Source: Hydrurus foetidus
Taxonomy: Eukaryota
DNA length: 59,691 bases
Direction: 5' to 3'
Assembly (NCBI GenBank): GCA_900617105.1
Contig: UYFQ01000506.1
Location: 310,001-369,691, forward strand
This document shows, piece after piece, positions 14,786 to 51,326 of the stretch (position 1 is the stretch's first letter; each line of letters starts with the position of its first letter). The position numbers and the translations under genes are program-made. The notes under the pieces were generated by a model, which saw only the letters and a list, made by a program, of their open reading frames with translations, searched no databases and was not told the DNA's origin.

Positions 14786-14906
14786 GCTCCTCCTATCCTG
14801 ACCGCTATCGCGGTCGTCCTCCCCCGGAGGGGGAAGATGAGGTCGGCGCGTTTCATCTTCCCCCTCCGGGGGAAGACGGCTGCGAAGCAGCCCGTAGGGG
14901 GCAAGT
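14786..14906. repeat. palindromic intergenic repeat (CIR/REP-like), family shared with 48590-48688
   Basis: Inverted arms cctcccccggagggggaagatga / tcatcttccccctccgggggaag; about 40 bp near-identical to 48594-48636. Confidence 0.75.
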
Positions 14907-16190: not shown

Positions 16191-16355
16191 CTGAAATCCT
16201 CTCCCAGAGGGAGAGGAGGGACCCGCCGCGTAGCGGTGGGAGGTGAGGGGTTACGCCGCAACCGGCGCGCCGGCACGCCGTCCTGCGTCCGTAACCCCTC
16301 ACCCTCCCACGCAAGCGTGGGTCCCTCCCTCTCCCTCTGGGAGAGGGCTGAAATC
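16191..16355. mobile_element. MITE-like inverted-repeat element flanked by an 8-bp direct repeat
   Basis: Terminal hairpins cctctccc-aga-gggagagg at both ends, long inverted arms; ctgaaatc at 16191-16198 and 16348-16355. Confidence 0.7.
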
Positions 16356-20767: not shown

Positions 20768-20939
20768 GGCTATCGCCTATGGATGCCGCCTCCAGAAAAA
20801 GTTGTCATCCCGGACAAGCCTGGCGAAGCCGGGCGCCGATCCGGGACCGCCGGAAGCGCTGCGTTCAGGCGTCGGTCCCGGATCTTCGCGCTGCGCGCTC
20901 GTCCGGGATGACAGCCCTTGTTGGTCATAGGCGATAGCC
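20768..20939. repeat. nested palindromic repeats: inner GTCATCCCGG-type element (20803-20913) inside a 14-bp inverted-repeat pair
   Basis: Inner tgtcatcccggac...gtccgggatgaca; outer ggctatcgcctatg / cataggcgatagcc. Confidence 0.75.
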
Positions 20940-20966
20940 TCTCCCTCTCTGGGGGAGGATCCATAT

Positions 20967-38547: not shown

Positions 38548-38862
38548 ACAACAGCTGGACGCGCGCCCCCGCCCTTGCGCCACCACTTAGCGGCCGAGCC
38601 GGGTACCGCGCGCAATCTGAGCGGATTTCCCTGAGCGGGCTTTCTTCGCCGCCGACCCGCGCCCCGTCGCGGGATCCCACCCTAAAACCCTTGGTGGAAT
38701 TGGAGCTCTGGCTGAGGGTCTCAGGCGCGGGGTAGCGCCCGCGCCAGGGCGCTGAGGCGCCAGCCCGGCAGCGACGGCCCCTTGACCGCGGGGGGCGATC
38801 GGACGGCCCTTCGCCGCGAGATTTAGGGATGGCGCCCTTCGGCGCGAAGGTGGGCGCGCTCC

Positions 38863-38994
38863 CAAGTCCTCTCCCTGAAGGGGGAGGCGATCACGAAGTG
38901 ATCGGAGGGGGTAGTGCTGCTGAGCCATTGCGGTCTTCCCCCACCGGCCCCCGATCAAGTCGGGGACCGCCTCCCCCTTCAGGGGGAGGACTTG
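38863..38994. repeat. palindromic repeat with terminal inverted repeats, copy 1
   Basis: caagtcctctccctgaagggggagg...cctcccccttcagggggaggacttg; inverted copy at 49256-49378. Confidence 0.8.
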
Positions 38995-39045
38995 CGGGGA
39001 TACGCCGTGCTCAATCCCCGTTCTTTTGAGAACAAACCCCAGCCC

Positions 39046-39107
39046 AATCAACCGCTTGTAAAATAGTTGATCGCGCCCATCAGACGCGCTCAAACCTCCC
39101 GTATTCT
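39046..39107 (+). promoter_or_regulatory. IHF-consensus site plus putative -10 (copy 1)
   Basis: aatcaaccgcttg fits WATCAANNNNTTR; tattct at 39102-39107; block conserved in copy 2. Confidence 0.5.
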
Positions 39108-39109
39108 TG

Positions 39110-39505
39110 TCCCACCTCGTCGCGAGGAAAGGGCGCAAGGCCAGCGACCATTGCGGCGGCGGGGGGTGATCGAGCGGGACTGGGGTCGAGGGGGATACTC
39201 GACCGGTCCGGGGATCCTGGCGTTGCAGGACCCGCCCGCCGTCGGCGTGGATGGGGATCAAGGCGAGTGTTGGTCAGGATTGGCCCCACGCCCCCCGACC
39301 TCCGGGACTTCGGGAAACCGAAGCTTCCGGGTTCCGGTAAGGCCCCAACTGGGCCACCCGCTGGGACGCTGATGGATAACGACCACGCGGAGCGCTCGGC
39401 TTCGTCGAAACGGTATTTTCTATCTCTCATCCGGACGTGGTCCGGACGCTCCGCGACCCTTTCCACCCCCATCGGCGGTTTTCCGCGCGAGGTGTGAAAC
39501 CGTGT
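39110..39505 (+). ncRNA. candidate large structured RNA, copy 1
   Basis: No credible ORF; conserved blocks and covarying stems relative to 48695-49130 (-). Confidence 0.55.
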
Positions 39506-39594: not shown

Positions 39595-40534
39595 CTACTT
39601 TCCGGCGGCGGCGAGCGCGTCCATCAGTTCGGGCACCGCGGTCTTGTAGTCGGCGACCAGGCCGAAATCGGCGACCTGGAAGATCGGGGCGTCGCTGTCC
39701 TTGTTGATGGCGACGATGATCTTGCTGTCCTTCATGCCGGCCAGGTGCTGGATGGCACCCGAGATGCCGATGGCGACATACAGGGCCGGCGCCACGACCT
39801 TGCCGGTCTGACCGACCTGATAGTCGTTGGGGGCGTAGCCCGCATCGACTGCAGCGCGCGAGGCGCCCACGGCGGCGCCCAGCTTGTCGGCCAGGGGCTC
39901 GATCACCCGCTGGAACTCTTCAGCCGAGCCCATGGCCCGACCGCCGGAGACGACGATCTTGGCCGCCGCCAGTTCGGGGCGGTCGGACTTGACCATCTCT
40001 TCGCTGACGAAGCGGGTCTTGTCGGCTTCCGCGCCGGAGGCGTTCTCGACCGGGGCCGAGCCGCCCTCTTCCGCCGCCGCAAAGGCGGTGGGACGCACGG
40101 TGATCACCTTCTTGGCGTCCGAGGACTGGACGGTTTCGAGGGCGTTGCCGGCATAGATCGGGCGCACGAAGGTGTCGGCCGAGACGACTTCCACGATCTC
40201 GCTGATCGGGGCGACGTCCAGCTTGGCGGCGACGCGCGGCGCGAAGTTCTTGCCGCCCGACGGGCCGGAACCAGGATCGCGTCGATAGTGGCCGGCCAGG
40301 GCCAGCACGGCGTCGGCTTGCGCCTCGCCACGCTGTGACCCAAGGCGGCGCTGTCGGCCAGCAGGACCTTGCGGACACCGCGATCTTGGCGGCCATGTCG
40401 GCCACGGCCTTGGCGTTGTGGCCCATGACCAGAACGTCCACGTCGCCCGAAAGCTTCAGGGCGGCGGTGACGGTCTTGTGGGTGCCATCGCGCAGGTGCG
40501 CGTTGTCGTTATCGGCGACGACGAGAACAGCCAT
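39595..40534 (-). CDS. etfA: electron transfer flavoprotein alpha (frameshifted)
   Basis: [44 protein letters not shown]. Confidence 0.97.
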
Positions 40535-44444: not shown

Positions 44445-46047
44445 TCAAGGCTGTCGCGTCAGCCGCAGGTCCTGATAGTCGAACGAGAAGTCGGCCAGGG
44501 GCGAGACGGCCCTGGCCAGGGCTGACCTCACGGCGCCGTTCTCGACGTCGAAGGTGATGAAGGCGTCCTCCTGGGTGCGGTCGTCGAAGACCGTCTTGAA
44601 GGTCTCGCCGTCGAACAGCTCCAGCCTGCCCTGCAGGGCCGGGGTCTTGTCGAACGAGACCGTCAGGCCTTTCGCCTTCTTGCCTTTCGCCTTTCCGATC
44701 GTGACCGTGCCGTACCAGGGGTCGCGATAGACCCCGACATAGGCGTCGAGCGGCAGGCTGGGCGGCTTGCCGCCGCCCTTGGGCGTGGCGGCGTCGGCGG
44801 CGTCCTTGGCGGTCTGGACGTCGTTTTCGGCCTGGACGCGTTTGCTGGAGGCGATCCAGTCGAAGTCGCTGCGGCCCTGCAGGCGGTCAGGACCGCCGTA
44901 GCGCAGTGCGCGCAGCACCGGGTTTTCCTCGGCGTTGGTCATCACCATGATGCCCGACTTCCGACCGGGCAGCAGGCCGGTATAGGAGATGAAGCCCGCC
45001 AGGCCGCCGGTGTGCCAAAGCAACCGCTCGCCGCGATGGTCCTGCACGAACCAGCCCAGGGCATAGGCCTGCATCGACGGACGCACGGGGTTTTCCGCCG
45101 TCGGGCCATCGGACGAAGACGTGATGGTCTGGGGCTTCCACATTTCGCGGGCGGTGGCCTCGCTCCACAGGCGCTTGCCGTCGGGCAGGGCTCCAGGGCC
45201 AGTTGCACCTTGCATCCACTTGCCGATATCGGCCGGCGTCGTATTGACCCCGCCCGCAGCGGCGGCCGAGGCGAAGCTGTCGTCAAAGGGCAGGACCGTC
45301 TGCGGGCCCATGCCCCGCACCGGCAACCCAGGCGGCAGTGCGGCTCGGCCCGGCGGGTCTTGTCGACCTGGGCCGGGGTGGTCACCGCAATGGTCATGCC
45401 CAGGGATCGAGAATCCGGCTCTTGATGAAGTCTTCCCACGGCTTGCCCGTGACGGCGGCCACCACCTCGCCGGCCGCGACGTAGAGCACGTTGTCATAGG
45501 CGTAGCCGCCCCGGAACGGGCTGCCGATCGGCAGGTATTTGAGCCCGGCCACGACGGCCCGGCTGTGGGTCGGGGCGGGCCAGATCATCAGGTCGCCGGC
45601 CCCGAGCGTCAGGCCGCTGCGGTGGACCAGCAGGTCGCGCACGGTCATCAGCTTGGTGACCACCGGGTCGCTCATCGCGAAGTCAGGCAGGTAGCGGGTG
45701 ACCGGCGCGTCCCACTCGACCTTGCCGTCCTCGACCAGCATGGCCAGGGCCGCCGCCGTCATGGCCTTGGTGTTGGAGGCGATGCCGAAGAGGGTGTTCT
45801 CGTCGCACCGGGCCGGAGCGCCCAGACGCCGGACGCCATAACCCTTGGCCAGGGTGATCTGGCCGTTCTCGACCACGGCGACGCCCAGGCCCGGCTGGTC
45901 GGGAGGCGGCCATGACCTGCTGGGCGTACGGTCGACCGCTGCGGCGACCGAGCCGGTTTCCCGGGCCTTGGCGGAGGTCCCGAACGCGGCGAGCCCGCCG
46001 GTGGCCAGGGCGGAAAGCAGGGCGGCGCGGCGGGTCGTGGCTATCAT
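44445..46047 (-). CDS. Tat-exported serine hydrolase (beta-lactamase family, DUF3471-like tail; frameshifted)
   Basis: TRRAALL signal, IASNTK (SxxK), YDN, HTGG. Confidence 0.88.
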
Positions 46048-46151
46048 GGTGCGTCCTTGGGTGCTGGCGCAGGCTAAGCTGATGCTCGCCGGGCCGACAA
46101 GGGGCATGAACGACCGCTCATCCCGGTTATCGCGGGAATAAGCGGTGCGGA

Positions 46152-47817
46152 TCAGTTCCCGCCGTCCAGCAGCCGCCTTGCGATCACCTGGGCCTGGATC
46201 TCGCCGGCGCCCTCGAAGATGTTGAGGATCCGGGCGTCGGCCAGCACGCGGCTGATGACGTATTCGGTGGCGAAGCCGTTGCCGCCGTGGATCTGCAGGG
46301 CGTTGTCGGCCGCGGCCCAGGCCACGCGGGCGGCGATCAGCAGGCCATGCCGGCCTCAATGTCGCAGCGCTTGTCCTCGTCCTTCTGGGCGCCGGCGAAC
46401 AGGTCAGCGGTCGTCCCGCCCATGGATCTCGGCGGCCCCATCGCCAGCTTGTTGGCGCGCGCGGGAATTCGAAGATCGCCTGGCCAAACTGCTTGCGGTC
46501 CATCGCGTAGGACAGGCCCACCTCCAGCGCCGACTGGGCCACGCCGACGGCGCGGGCGGCGGTCTGGATGCGGGCGCTCTCGAAGGTGGCCATCAGCTGC
46601 TTGAAGCCCTGGCCCTCGACCCCGCCCAGCAGGTTTTCGGCCGGCACGGTGAAGCCGTCGAAGCCCAGCTCATATTCCTTCATGCCGCGATAGCCGATCA
46701 CGCCGATCTCGCCGCCGCTCATGCCCTGGGCGGGGAAGTCGTCGCCGTCGACGCCGCGCGGCTTGGGGGCCAGCAGCATGGAGAGACCGCGATAGTCGGT
46801 GGTGGCCGGATCGGTGCGGACCAGCAGGGTCATCACATCGGCGCGGGCCGCGTGGGTGATCCAGGTCTTGTTGCCGGTCACGACATAGCGGTCGCCCTCC
46901 AGCGCCGCCCGGGTGCGCAGGGCCCCGAGGTCGGAGCCGGTATTGGGCTCGGTGAACACGGCCGTGGGCAGGATCTCGGCGCTGGCGATGCGCGGCAGCC
47001 AGTACTGCTTCTGGGCCTCGGTGCCGCCGGTCAGGATCAGCTCGCCGGCGATCTCCGAGCGGGTGGCCAGGGATCCGACGCCGATCCAGGCGCGCGACAG
47101 CTCTTCGGAGACCACGCACATGGCGGTCTTGCCCATGCCGCTGCCGCCATATTCCTCGGGGATGGTCAGGCCGAACACGCCCAGGGCGCCCAGCTCCTCG
47201 ACCAGCTCGATGGGGATCAGCTCGTCCTTCAGGTGCCATTCGTGGGCGAAGGGCGTGACCTTTTCCTCGGCGAAGGCGTGGAACTGGTCGCGGATCATCT
47301 CGAAGGTTTCGTCCAGGCCGGTGTTTTCCAGCGTCGGACGGCCGCGCGCTTCGGCCAGACGCCGGGCGATGGCGGTCTTGACCGCCTGACCGCCGCCCTG
47401 GGTCGTCAGGGTGACCAGGGCCGGGGTCGAGAGCAGGTCGAGGCTGGCGCGATCGGGGGTCAGGTCGCCGGGGCGGATGATCTCGCCCTGGTTCATGGCG
47501 ATGCCGCCGAGCTGGACGGCGTATTCGGCGAACAGCAGCTGGGCCAGCGCCTCGATCTGTAAAGCGGCCGCTGGCCTGCACCAGCCGGCCACCTGGTTGA
47601 GCAGCTCGGCATAGGCGGCGTACCAGCCAAAGCCGTGAACCACGTGCTGTTCCAGGTCGGCCAGCTTGCGATCGACCTTGCCGTCCGGCCCGGCGATCCG
47701 GGCCTTCACGACCGGACCTTGTCGACAAGGCCTGGGCGGCCGTGGCAATTCGCGCAGCAGGCCTGTCAGGCCGGGGAGAATGATCGAGCTGTTATCTTGA
47801 GCGACCGTTGCGGTCAT
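46152..47817 (-). CDS. mcd: acyl-CoA dehydrogenase, (2S)-methylsuccinyl-CoA dehydrogenase-like (frameshifted)
   Basis: N-terminal extension; VVSEELSRAWIGVGSLATRSEIA, FTEPNTGSDL, GYRGMKEY; ccr nearby. Confidence 0.75.
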
Positions 47818-47922
47818 GACTTGCTCCCCTGCGCCAAACAGTTGTTTTCTTTCACTCTGGCGCTTTTCGCACCTGCGAGCAATGCCGCAGCGCAGCATAG
47901 AGCCGCAAAACGGGGAAGAACC

Positions 47923-48549
47923 ATGCTGAAAGTCCACCACCTCAACGAGTCCCGGTCGCAGCGCATCCTGTGGCTGCTGGAGGAACTGAGCGTTCCCTAC
48001 GAGATCGTGTTTCACACCCGCGACACCACGACCCGCTTGGCCCCGTCGTCGCTGACCGACGTGCATCCGCTGGGCAAGTCGCCGGTCATCGTGGATGGCG
48101 ACCTGACCGTGATCGAGTCCGGCGCGATCATCGACTATGTCATCCGTCGTCACGGTGAAGGCCGGCTGGCCCCCGATCCGGCCAGCGCCGACTACGACCG
48201 CTATCAGCAGTGGCTGCACTATGCCGAGGGCTCGGCCATGCTGCCCCTGATGCTCAACATGTATGTCGGCCGGCTGGGCGAGGGCGGCGCGCCGCTGCAG
48301 CCGCGCATCCAGTCCGAGATCGCCAACCACCTGGCCTTCGTCAATGACAGCCTGGCCGGCCGTCAGTTCTTCGTCGGCGACAGTCTGACCGGCGCCGACA
48401 TCCAGATGAGCTTCGTGCCCGAGGTCGCCAAGGCCATGGGCAAGCTGCCGGAGTATCCGCACATGGCCGCCTGGATCGAGCGCATGCACGCCCGCCCGGC
48501 GTGGAAGACCGCCCTGGACAAGAGCGGTCCTTACGCCCTGGGTGCATAG
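47923..48549 (+). CDS. glutathione S-transferase family protein
   Basis: HHLNESRSQRILWLLEEL, HPLGKSPV, ESGAI, ADIQMSF. Confidence 0.95.
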   Translation: MLKVHHLNESRSQRILWLLEELSVPYEIVFHTRDTTTRLAPSSLTDVHPLGKSPVIVDGDLTVIESGAIIDYVIRRHGEGRLAPDPASADYDRYQQWLHYAEGSAMLPLMLNMYVGRLGEGGAPLQPRIQSEIANHLAFVNDSLAGRQFFVGDSLTGADIQMSFVPEVAKAMGKLPEYPHMAAWIERMHARPAWKTALDKSGPYALGA

Positions 48550-48589
48550 GGCCGGTCAGTTTCAGCCGCCTCGCGCTCCCGACTCGGTT

Positions 48590-48688
48590 GCTTCGCGGTC
48601 GTCCTCCCCCGTAGGGGGAAGATGAGGTCGGCGCGTGTCAAATCCCCCTCCGGGGGACCCCGGTCGCGAAGCCCCCATAGGGGGAAGT
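48590..48688. repeat. palindromic intergenic repeat, second copy of the 14786-14906 family
   Basis: cgcggtcgtcctcccccgtagggggaagatgaggtcggcgcgt shared. Confidence 0.75.
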
Positions 48689-48694
48689 CTGGCG

Positions 48695-49130
48695 GACACG
48701 GGCTCTCAGCCTCACGCGGCATCAGCCACTGAAGTTGGGGAGGCGCGAAGCGGCCGGGGCGAACCCGGATGACCGTGATGTGTGTTTTGCGTTTCGGCTC
48801 GACCTGTCCGCTTCGCAGAAGCTGTTCTTGCGTGAGGATCGGGCCAAGCGAGCGTCTTTCAGCTCTGATACCCAAGAGCCCCCGTACGGGCGCGCACCAA
48901 GGTCGATCGGCTAACCGTCTCGACCCCCGACGATGCGCGATAGGCGGGTTTACGATCCCTCGCCCTGTTGCTCCGCGCTGTTCCTCCGACGAGCCTTCCG
49001 GTGGTCCCGGATCAATCCAACGAACAGACCACCTTCGTCCTCGCCGCGTGACCGCGCGGCCCCGCTCAGCTCCATCCCCATCGCCGCTGTTGGGCCGGAT
49101 CCAGGCGCCTCCCCCTGCGACAGGGACAGC
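48695..49130 (-). ncRNA. candidate large structured RNA, copy 2
   Basis: Same ordered blocks and stems as 39110-39505 with compensatory substitutions. Confidence 0.55.
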
Positions 49131-49134
49131 TCTG

Positions 49135-49196
49135 ATTATGCAGGCGGTTTGAGCGCCGAGGATTGGCGCGATCAACTATTTTACAAGCGATTGATT
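49135..49196 (-). promoter_or_regulatory. IHF-consensus site plus putative -10 (copy 2)
   Basis: - strand aatcaatcgcttg (49196-49184); cataat (49140-49135). Confidence 0.5.
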
Positions 49197-49255
49197 GGGC
49201 TGGAGTTTGGTCTGCAAAGAACGGGGATTGAGCGCCCTCTATCCCCGTGCGGCCT

Positions 49256-49378
49256 CAAAGTCCTCCCCCTGAAGGGGGAGGCGGCCGGAGGCCGGTGGGG
49301 GAAGACCCCTCCGGCTCAGCAGCACTACCCCCTCCGATCGCTTCGCGATCGCCTCCCCCTTCAGGGGGAGGACTTGGG
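49256..49378. repeat. palindromic repeat with terminal inverted repeats, copy 2
   Basis: aagtcctccccctgaagggggagg...cctcccccttcagggggaggacttg. Confidence 0.8.
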
Positions 49379-49401
49379 AGCGCGTCCCGTTCCCGTCGCG
49401 A

Positions 49402-50240
49402 CTACTTGTTCCCGGAATAGGGCACGCCCTTGACGGTCTCGTCATAGGCAGTCGGCGGGTTGTCCGGCAAGTTGAGCAGCTTGGCCTTGGGCGCGCTCAG
49501 TTCCCGCACCCGCCAGGCATTGGGTCCAACGCGCGTGAAGACCGCCTCGGTCTGTTCGCCGCTGCTGGTCAGCTCCATGCCCGGATTGGCCTCGTCGCTG
49601 GCCGGACGCAGGCAGTAACCCTTGATCTCGGTGTCGCTGACCCATTTCATGGTCAGGCAGCGCGACTTGAACTCGAATTTGCGATGCGGCTTGCTCGACC
49701 AGTCGAGCAACTGGGTGCGGGCGCGGGCGTCGTCGCCGGCCTCCCAGGTCTCGTCCTGGCCTGAGCTGGCCAGCACGGCGCCACGCCACTCGCCGAAGGG
49801 GACAGATTCGATTTCGACGCCTCGCTTGTCGTAGAGGGTGATGCCGGGCCCGTCGGGCGAAGCGAAATAGTCAGTGGTGACCTCGTAGACGGACTGCACG
49901 CCGTTGACGGTGGGTATCTGGATGACATTGGTCAGCAGGCCAGGTTTCTGTCGTCATCACGGTGAGGGCGGCCACGCCACTGTGCTGCAGCGTCAGGGTC
50001 GGACCCAGGCTCCCGGCTGGCCCAGTTCCTTCAGCAACCTCGCCGACGCGCCCCGCGTCACGTGCGGCGCACAGGTCGAACTGCGGCAGCTCCGGGCCCG
50101 CGCAGCGGCGGACGTCGCCGGTGCGACAGGCTTGGCCGCTTCGGCCGGCGGCTTGGCGGCGCCGGGGAGCTTGTCACAGCCGGACAGGGCGGCGAGGACG
50201 GCCAGGCTGCGAGCGTCACGGATCTGGACTGGAACGACAT
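49402..50240 (-). CDS. hypothetical lipoprotein, paralog A (frameshifted)
   Basis: LAALSGC lipobox; C-terminus TRVGPNAWRVRELSAPKAKL...PPTAYDETVKGVPYSGNK. Confidence 0.7.
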
Positions 50241-50481
50241 GGGGTCCCTGGGGCGACTGAAATGGCGGGCGCACCCTAGCCAGAACCCAAGGGTGAGCAA
50301 GGCGGCGCCTCGTGTGGTGTGTGCGGGCGACGCTTTCCGCAGGATGCGTCTGTCCGCACTTGCCCTGCCGTCGCGGAGCTTGTCCTCGGCGGCCCGCGCG
50401 ACCCGGGCGACTGGCCGGAGGGGAAGATAAGGTTGTAGCGGTCAGGAGGTCGGCAACGGCCAGGGCCCGAGGCCTCGGCGA

Positions 50482-51326
50482 CTATTGATTGCCCGAATAG
50501 GCCACGCCCTTGACGGTCTCGTCATAGGCCGTCGGCGGGTTGTTCTCGGCGTCCATCAGCTTGGCCTTGGGAGCCCGCAGCTCGCGCAGGCGCCAGGCGT
50601 TGGGCCCAACGCGCGTCACGATCGCATCAATTTCCTCGTCATGGCCGTTGAGCTCAACGCCGGGTGAGGCGTCGTGCAACGCAGGACGCGAACAGAGGGC
50701 CCTCAGCTCTGTGTCGCTGGTCCAGCGGGATGCGTTGCAGCGCGCCTTGAAGACATATTTCCGGTGTGGCGTCTTCGTCAGGTCGTGCAGCTCGAGGGTG
50801 TTGTTGCCCGCAGAATCAATGTCGTAGGCCGAATCGTTCCAGGAGATCGCCGCGATGGCGCCGCGCCAGTCCGCCCAGTGGCCATAGGTCTCGATCTCGA
50901 CGCCGTTCTGGTCGAACAGGGTCACGGAGGGATCATCGACCTCCTCCGTGAGGCTGTGACCGACTTCATAGTGGAGCTGCTCGACGCCATCGCGGGTCAT
51001 CTTGAAGACCCGTTGCAGAGTCCACGCTTGGCCTTCGGGGTTTTTCAGGGACAGCACGACCTTGCCGTCGCGCCGGATCGTCAGGGTGTCGCCCTGGCGC
51101 GCCTCGGGTTGGCCCAGTTCCTTGAGAACCCGAGCCTCCTGGTCGTTCCCGTCAGGCGGTTTCCGCTTCCACATAGGCGGGCCCTGCCGCGCTTCTGGAT
51201 CGGCTGAGCGCGGCGCGTCGCCGGCCTCGCGGCGCCGGGCGGCGCTGGCTTCTGGTCGCAACCCGCCGCCAGCAGCAGCGCGGCCGTCAACAGCATCCCG
51301 CGTGCGGGCTTCACTTCAAGAGCCAT
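50482..51326 (-). CDS. hypothetical lipoprotein, paralog B (frameshifted)
   Basis: LLAAGC lipobox; C-terminus TRVGPNAWRLRELRAPKAKL...PPTAYDETVKGVAYSGNQ. Confidence 0.7.

Follow-up and report, generated by a model that had tools for sequence, protein, structure and literature searches.

The window analysed here, a stretch of 59,691 nucleotides, contains two inverted copies of a dispersed, ORF-less unit. The unit combines a predicted promoter with a multi-domain, pseudoknotted RNA scaffold that is supported by covariation, a loop that switches among palindromes, and exchangeable interior hairpins. On balance, we regard it as a selfish, promoter-bearing RNA cassette, which would multiply as DNA, through gene conversion that starts at neighbouring repeats, and would make a self-associating RNA; we hold this reading with about even confidence.

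Copy B (minus strand, 48695..49130) and copy A (plus strand, 39113-39464) are inverted relative to each other and lie about 9.2 kb apart, and a covariance model of the 3' domain detects exactly two copies in the window (Table 1). A previous reading made from the sequence only had named stems and hairpins of copy B and a second, inverted copy about 9 kb away; the named features were all found where it had placed them, on the minus strand, and the second copy is copy A. The objection that the two blocks might be no more alike than shuffled DNA does not hold: their RNA bodies align with a score of 153.6 versus 114.5 ± 9.2 in dinucleotide shuffles (maximum 143.9 of 300), their upstream leaders with 157 versus 33.7 ± 4.6, and their ordered-block pattern was found in 0 of 2000 shuffles. 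The leader of copy B is 82% identical to that of copy A over 119 nt; leaders are common to the copies and travel with the RNA unit. The sequence-only reading had overlooked this 110-bp leader and the -10-like hexamer that goes with it, as well as the pseudoknot, the palindromic loop and the repeats on either side.

The single-sequence minimum free energy fold of copy B is unremarkable (z = -0.96), and the evidence for structure is therefore comparative. Within the window, frameshifts interrupt etfA and a gene for an acyl-CoA dehydrogenase (39595-40534 and 45394-48489), which suggests indel errors in the assembly; single-base differences in the window copies thus need cautious reading. Two tandem paralogous lipoprotein-like ORFs (49398-49899 and 50478-51261), 73% identical over 247 nt, have no Pfam match and are patchy among relatives.

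Table 1. Features of the two copies and their surroundings in the window.
Feature	Positions	Strand	Remark
Copy B, 5' stem P1	49072..49129; 49129-49117 with 49084-49072	-	Loop carries pseudoknot strand and hairpin P2
Copy B, conserved GAGCGGG	49061..49067	-	GCGGG probably forms the 5' strand of P3, the stem that closes the variable domain
Copy B, modular interior	48817..49060	-	Exchangeable hairpins, several with A-rich T-loop-like loops
Copy B, P5, long irregular 3' stem	48745..48816; 48816-48808 with 48753-48745	-	CGAAAC bulge and hypervariable G-poor single-stranded segment
Copy B, CGAAACG	48796-48790	-	
Copy B, pseudoknot 5' strand	49107..49114	-	Purine run
Copy B, pseudoknot 3' strand	48737..48744	-	
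Copy B, palindromic loop L2	49097..49102	-	GGATCC; predicted intermolecular kissing loop
Copy B, predicted sigma-70-type -10 hexamer	49135..49140	-	CATAAT, 7-8 nt before P1
Copy B, leader	49141..49250	-	GGGGAT..ATCCCC hairpin 49247-49222; ATCAA..TTGAT inverted repeat 49195-49171
Copy B, 3' hairpin and short tail	48689..48732 (hairpin 48732-48712)	-	Tail ends near CCGTG; likely RNA 3' end
Copy B, upstream hairpin-doublet palindromic repeat	49258..49375		REP/CIR-like
Copy B, downstream hairpin-doublet repeat	48570..48688		Second type, partly decayed
Copy A	39113..39505	+	Scaffold of copy B, different interior subtype
Copy A, -10-like hexamer	39102-39107	+	TATTCT
Copy A, palindromic loop	39139-39142	+	GGCC
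Copy A, pseudoknot	39126-39133 with 39457-39464	+	
Copy A, leader and upstream repeat	38864..39101 (repeat 38864-38994)	+	
Glutathione S-transferase (GST) gene flanking copy B	47923..48549	+	Convergent; Pfam GST_N, GST_C
Lipoprotein-like ORF upstream of copy B	49402..49899	-	No Pfam match

About 200 distinct copies with swappable modules and at least seven loop codes were gathered. Among 203 distinct 3' domains, 162 also had a 5' domain, with a median length of 377 nt. From 5' to 3', the unit consists of a leader (45-110 bp), the -10-like hexamer, P1, GAGCGGG, the modular interior (some 100-250 nt, depending on the family member), P5, the 3' strand of the pseudoknot and a 3' hairpin. The -10 slot holds a YAY-type hexamer with a final T in 47 of the 58 non-redundant copies, compared with 5.8% of shuffles, and no clear -35 element was seen upstream of it. 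In P1, 99.1% of the cells are paired and five of nine pairs show two-sided change, rising to nine of nine in a set of 40 diverse copies. Its covariation reaches 0.564 against 0.235 in shuffles; such shuffle controls ignore relatedness, hence they do not give probabilities, but slid-partner controls, which keep relatedness, are also exceeded. The loop of P1 contains the small hairpin P2 as well as a run of purines that forms a pseudoknot with the 3' end. For this pseudoknot, the cognate Watson-Crick stem measures 7.65 bp over 55 distinct pairs, compared with 5.75 ± 0.21 for shuffled partners (maximum 6.42 of 1000). A candidate stem P3 joins GCGGG to CCCGC downstream and has the compensated variants ACGGG/CCCGT and GCAGG/CCTGC. 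In the interior, A-rich T-loop-like hairpins were found in 27 of 58 copies and twice on the opposite strand, with a motif list drawn from the same data.

At the 3' end, the sequence-only reading had proposed an outer stem with a hairpin inside it. The stem stands, whereas the inner hairpin is better replaced by a long irregular helix: covariation is 0.207 for the long P5 helix (0.122 shuffled) with 22 further pair types, and 0.155 for the hairpin alternative (TCCGG..CCGG; 0.088 shuffled) with eight. G-U pairs occupy 126 cells of P5 and A-C mismatches 46, which identifies the RNA strand as the one chosen in the sequence-only reading. The tip of P5 carries a hypervariable segment, with 150 distinct loops among 197 and a G content of 4.8%. 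In subtype B and in some divergent members, this G-poor segment is found on the 5' side of the CGG apex helix, and in the other subtypes on its 3' side, a local swap within P5 (window 48790-48766 versus 39405-39433; L305, L313, L299). Internally deleted or half copies occur at L138, L390, L248, L110 and L151, one of which joins promoter and P2 directly to P5.

That the unit is a DNA-level MITE or a single-stranded DNA structure, with the RNA incidental, is accordingly hardly probable. It is dispersed among other MITE-like repeats, and the inverted repeat in its leader could bind a protein. However, the strand-specific excess of G-U over A-C, the fixed distance of the -10 hexamer and the covariation of pseudoknot and palindromic loop all argue against a DNA-level element. 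Its ends may do so too: a terminal inverted repeat is limited to a match of 5-6 bp, and no target duplication was seen in a comparison of genomes whose junctions have diverged.

The loop of P2 (L2) contains a palindrome of at least 4 nt in 64 of 65 distinct variants and of at least 6 nt in 50 of 65. Column-permuted controls yield 36.1 (maximum 46) and 13.2 (maximum 27), respectively. The cores of these palindromes are GGCC, GAUC, GUAC and AGCU, and the variants include GGATCC (copy B), GGCC (copy A), CGGCCG, TGGCCA, CGTACG, GGTACC, CAGCTG, AGGCCT and TCCGGA. In a further set of 29 loci, some of which overlap earlier ones, seven could not be parsed; 18 of the 22 parsed loops are palindromic, and in the other four a single substitution breaks the palindrome. 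The 49 rows of G001, the nearest complete genome, contain six loop codes side by side, some of these rows being redundant. Palindromic-loop switching has been reported as a signature of intermolecular kissing loops in OLE and GOLLD RNAs, and switching of loop L9.3 of OLE among GGCC, GAUC and AGCU as evidence for an intermolecular bridge (10.1101/2024.12.08.627333). Since adjacent bases cannot pair within one loop, and given the OLE-type switching among palindromes, the RNA likely self-associates through L2.

G001 (4.1 Mb, one contig) holds 53 copies by a strict 3' pattern, for which the reversed control gave 0, and at least 57 in all: the 5'-domain model accepted all 57 candidates scored. At about 550 bp each, 57 copies represent near 0.8% of this genome. 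The strict pattern matches 20 of 201 genomes of the family and 23 of 41 of the genus, with 1-54 copies in each of these 23 (0-54 over all 41). The models reach more divergent members and recognise copies in 14 of 21 family genomes of an order-wide sample, in seven of 32 of another set, and in 21 of 81 family genomes from six of 25 genera. With the best 30-57 candidates per genome scored, so that remote relatives can be missed, the model found no copy in other families, be it of the same order (80 genomes) or of the class (48 and 149 genomes). Named genomes gave at least 120 matches; the 80 listed are Caulobacter, Brevundimonas, Caulobacteraceae, Caulobacterales and unassigned alphaproteobacterial records, together with three rows of one assembly under the unverified label Alsobacter, which pass the model, and one Streptomyces row. 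The pattern matches in this Streptomyces row and in G345 failed the covariance model and were rejected as members. No copies were detected in viral contigs (IMG/VR, by pattern), or in phage records (INPHARED) and plasmids (PLSDB) by blastn.

This distribution bears on the main rival explanation, a host-beneficial ornate RNA (a protein sponge, decoy or OLE-like stress scaffold) whose gene is amplified passively by repeat-driven recombination and whose dosage or loop diversity is selected at host level. Near-universal presence in some genera (five of five genomes in g13, nine of nine in g2), strong purifying selection on structure and a conserved promoter hexamer favour such a role, and the hypervariable G-poor loop could be a bait. 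On the other hand, the model finds no copy in five complete or near-complete members of the genus (G109, G028, G047, G706, G714), the copy number spans 0-57, and single loci turn over quickly. We therefore consider a host-beneficial RNA rather doubtful.

The turnover can be followed at orthologous sites, which are filled, empty, truncated or occupied by another subtype. The site of copy B next to the GST gene is filled in the window, G001 and G703 and holds only the 5' half of the unit in G679. In G686 and G687 it is empty, with 20-30 bp between the matching gene pair, and these genomes hold 25 and 30 copies elsewhere. The remaining 23 of 29 GST orthologues have neither the unit nor the lipoprotein-like neighbour gene. 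Four further G001 sites, compared in five genomes, are empty, contain a repeat only, or carry another subtype oriented alike. A remnant of the tail persists at one 'empty' site, so that some absences reflect loss and not insertion elsewhere. The compared sites yielded no clean insertion junction, and filled and empty sites show no target duplication, in genomes that are 84-96% identical and whose junctions have diverged. Moreover, the copies are mosaic: four-gamete incompatibility among type-A copies of G001 increases with distance, from 0.15 (1-10 nt) to 0.46 (more than 80 nt). Clustering of the ORFs around the copies confirmed that the neighbouring genes are unrelated. Together with copy counts and presence or absence at orthologous sites, this agrees with the earlier view of a repeated unit that spreads independently and has a conserved scaffold and a variable interior.

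In two genera, a copy occupies the site directly behind parE (L047, L124, L233, L299), convergently at three loci and co-directionally at one. A published map of C. crescentus has an 868-bp gap after parE with the untranslated hypothetical ORF CCNA_02053, and this gap may hold a copy.

Hairpin-doublet repeats abut 104 of 131 copies, lying upstream (within 300 nt) of 93 and downstream of 46, and none of 205 control windows. Five repeat types occupy about one distance from the RNA start. At both orthologous sites the repeats differ or invert between the window and G001: the upstream repeat of copy B is inverted there, and a different type takes the position of the upstream repeat of copy A. Neither side carries a repeat in 27 of the 131 copies, nor at one copy in G711, and the repeats are thus not required. 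In the window, such repeats also occur without the RNA unit (14817-14905, 16327-16347, 20804-20959, 34335, 53352). At many copies, the repeat-leader block is directly preceded by a separate MITE-like repeat of 120-150 bp with GAGAT(T/G)TA(A/G)GG ends (window 38680-38830; L014, L020, L069, L075, L081), which results in nested repeat clusters.

The repeat types that abut the copies are also found around small GIY-YIG genes and around a DUF559 gene, each of which lies between a pair of its own type (L325, L328-L330, L333, L335, L025). This resembles the repeat-ssnA-repeat architecture of Ssn GIY-YIG nucleases with NTS/SRM repeats described in PMC11893778. GIY-YIG genes are present in five of five genomes and DUF559 genes in 39 of 41; in G001, two of the five DUF559 genes lie within 0.5 kb of an RNA copy. 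G109, in which no copy was found, still has six GIY-YIG and 11 DUF559 genes, and these nucleases are therefore not specific partners of the unit.

Four of eight listed RNA runs were examined for metatranscriptome contigs, and three, each from a different study, gave short contigs within the unit (335, 231 and 168 nt). The 335-nt contig has a depth of 15.2 beside a GST contig at 4.35, and two contigs extend beyond the predicted start and reach the leader. These contigs, which show neither strand nor ends, weakly hint at transcription. The shares in metatranscriptomes are low (0.11-0.16 in the runs recorded as RNA) and cannot be taken as evidence for a habitat.

The unit is outside every RNA family tested. 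Rfam 15 gave no match in the window at the gathering score; at E<10 only miRNA-model noise on a flanking repeat and sub-threshold fragments appeared, and at E<0.5 ten diverse loci had no relevant match. Likewise, a decayed protein-coding gene, the alternative named in the sequence-only reading, is not supported, since the five overlapping ORFs have no Pfam match. None of 197 complete copies carries an ORF. The protein partner and the guide function that had been suggested also failed to appear: clustering of the ORFs around 203 copies returned only spurious frames of the unit, orthologous neighbours and DUF559 at four loci, and the variable loops match their own flanks no better than chance (6.55 versus 6.52 ± 0.09 nt), nor does the P2 region. 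The 3' tail gave a borderline value (9.21 versus 9.05 ± 0.09), which is due to the adjacent repeats.

Stand-alone omega-RNAs and bridge RNAs are precedents for scaffold or guide RNAs that act apart from their protein gene. By analogy, the copies could be stand-alone scaffolds or guides, with the variable loop as guide, that serve an RNA-guided nuclease or recombinase whose gene lies elsewhere and has escaped recognition. The pseudoknot joining the 5' loop to the 3' end, the size of 320-420 nt, the many dispersed ORF-less copies and the single hypervariable unpaired segment would fit such a role. However, the loop comparison above covers own flanks only and found no match, and the loop is compositionally biased. 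The TnpB zinc ribbon was found in none of five genomes, and the RRXRR domain of IscB in none of five, though control genomes gave no match either. IS110 (PF02371) has no match in G001, G096, G687, G121, G132 and G015, and is missing from G001 and seven more of 12 genomes. Y1_Tnp is absent from four element-rich genomes including G001 and present only in G109, where no copy was found. We consider the scaffold or guide explanation unlikely.

Large inserts in peripheral stems, pseudoknots and conserved unpaired motifs are typical of ribozymes. With its size, its pseudoknot, the unpaired CGAAAC and GAGCG motifs and its tolerance to inserts in peripheral stems, the unit resembles a catalytic RNA, such as an ORF-less intron-like or self-cleaving element moving through an RNA intermediate. 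Nevertheless, this is very unlikely: no Rfam ribozyme or intron matches, reverse transcriptase (RVT_1) has no match in G001 or G687, CGAAAC is altered in divergent members, and RNA-mediated movement would lose the external promoter and leader that travel with the copies.

Several known systems were rejected individually. For HEARO and the IscB omega-RNA, no model matches, and the predicted start lies directly at P1, 7-8 nt after the internal -10 hexamer. A TnpB omega-RNA or non-autonomous IS200/IS605 element would find both TnpB and Y1 transposase unavailable in the element-rich genomes, and an IS110 bridge RNA is opposed by the lack of PF02371 in the copy-bearing G001 and of loop matches to own flanks. 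A group II intron or retro-element has neither an Rfam match nor RVT_1 in G001 or G687. The hammerhead ribozyme core comprises CUGANGA together with GAAA; here CGAAAC is conserved and CUGANGA is not, and Rfam has no match. The family models of OLE, GOLLD and ROOL do not match, while the palindrome-switching loop that marks these RNAs is present. A repeat-flanked Ssn unit does not apply, as an ORF is lacking; in the same genomes, Ssn-like genes accompanied by repeats of this kind lie elsewhere.

HEARO and other omega-RNAs of IS200/IS605 occur in many dispersed copies, some of them without an ORF. The unit is similar to HEARO, whose size and role are given in 10.1101/2024.12.08.627333, in being a pseudoknotted RNA (about 350 nt for HEARO) in many dispersed copies. 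It differs in that its promoter lies inside the unit, that no guide is derived from the flank, and that Rfam, TnpB and Y1 transposase searches of G001 gave no match, nor did that for IscB, where the control was silent. With OLE, GOLLD and ROOL (10.1101/2024.12.08.627333), it shares a multi-stem covarying structure of a large bacterial non-coding RNA and a loop core switching among GGCC, GAUC and AGCU. In contrast to these, it is smaller, has another topology, exchangeable interiors and tens of dispersed chromosomal copies, and lacks an Rfam match, a linked protein and any phage or plasmid copy found. Both repeat-ssnA-repeat units (PMC11893778) and REP/RAYT systems also place cargo beside hairpin-doublet repeats at gene ends; in our case, however, the cargo is an RNA gene, and five repeat types are found, usually on one side only and sometimes on none. 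The two-armed flanking repeats of 110-130 bp resemble CIR of Caulobacter in size and layout; CIR have two arms, a length of about 110 bp and a GANTC site close to a loop. GANTC is missing from the upstream repeats in the window and present in the G001 counterpart and once downstream, and CIR corresponds to the flanks only, the 400-nt unit lying outside the description in PMC2229807. MRSC-65-2, a covarying motif with dozens of copies per genome that was read as selfish, is a single long stem (PMC11109978), whereas the unit is multi-domain and pseudoknotted and has its own promoter.

Full-text searches of the literature gave no description of the unit. Overlap with annotated C. crescentus ncRNAs is possible, as the published table gives no sequences (PMC4117421); the size-matched CCNA_R0109 was rejected as a counterpart because it lies inside rpoC. 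The main texts of two genome-wide motif screens (PMC11109978, PMC8632094) do not name Caulobacteraceae genera, and their supplements list hundreds of repeat candidates that could include the unit.

For the selfish cassette copied by gene conversion, we propose the following course. The unit would be transcribed from its own -10 hexamer into an RNA of 320-420 nt, which would form homo-dimers or larger assemblies via L2, with the loop sequence serving as subtype address. A nick at adjacent hairpin repeats by repeat-flanked GIY-YIG (Ssn-like) or DUF559 nucleases could start gene conversion; in this way the promoter would be copied too, and no target duplication would arise. The folded RNA may persist because it helps the unit to spread, for instance by acting as the scaffold of a GIY-YIG or DUF559 nuclease. 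However, the data do not explain why a selfish DNA cassette should need so constrained an RNA. A bolder version is possible, although we would put it forward only tentatively: a class of selfish elements whose sole product is an ornate RNA that dimerises or forms cages via subtype-specific palindromic loops and swaps interior modules, and in which the RNA, alone or with an Ssn/DUF559 nuclease, drives copying to over 50 sites in one genome with no transposase, reverse transcriptase or known RNA-guided nuclease.

Bacteria have few classes of large structured RNA, and time and again these have proved to be ribozymes, guide scaffolds or RNA-only assemblies. The unit offers a test of orthogonal kissing-loop codes in natural RNA oligomers and of how REP-like repeats and Ssn/DUF559 nucleases move cargo, a question open since CIR and REP were described, and its rich natural variation lies in a culturable, genetically tractable family.
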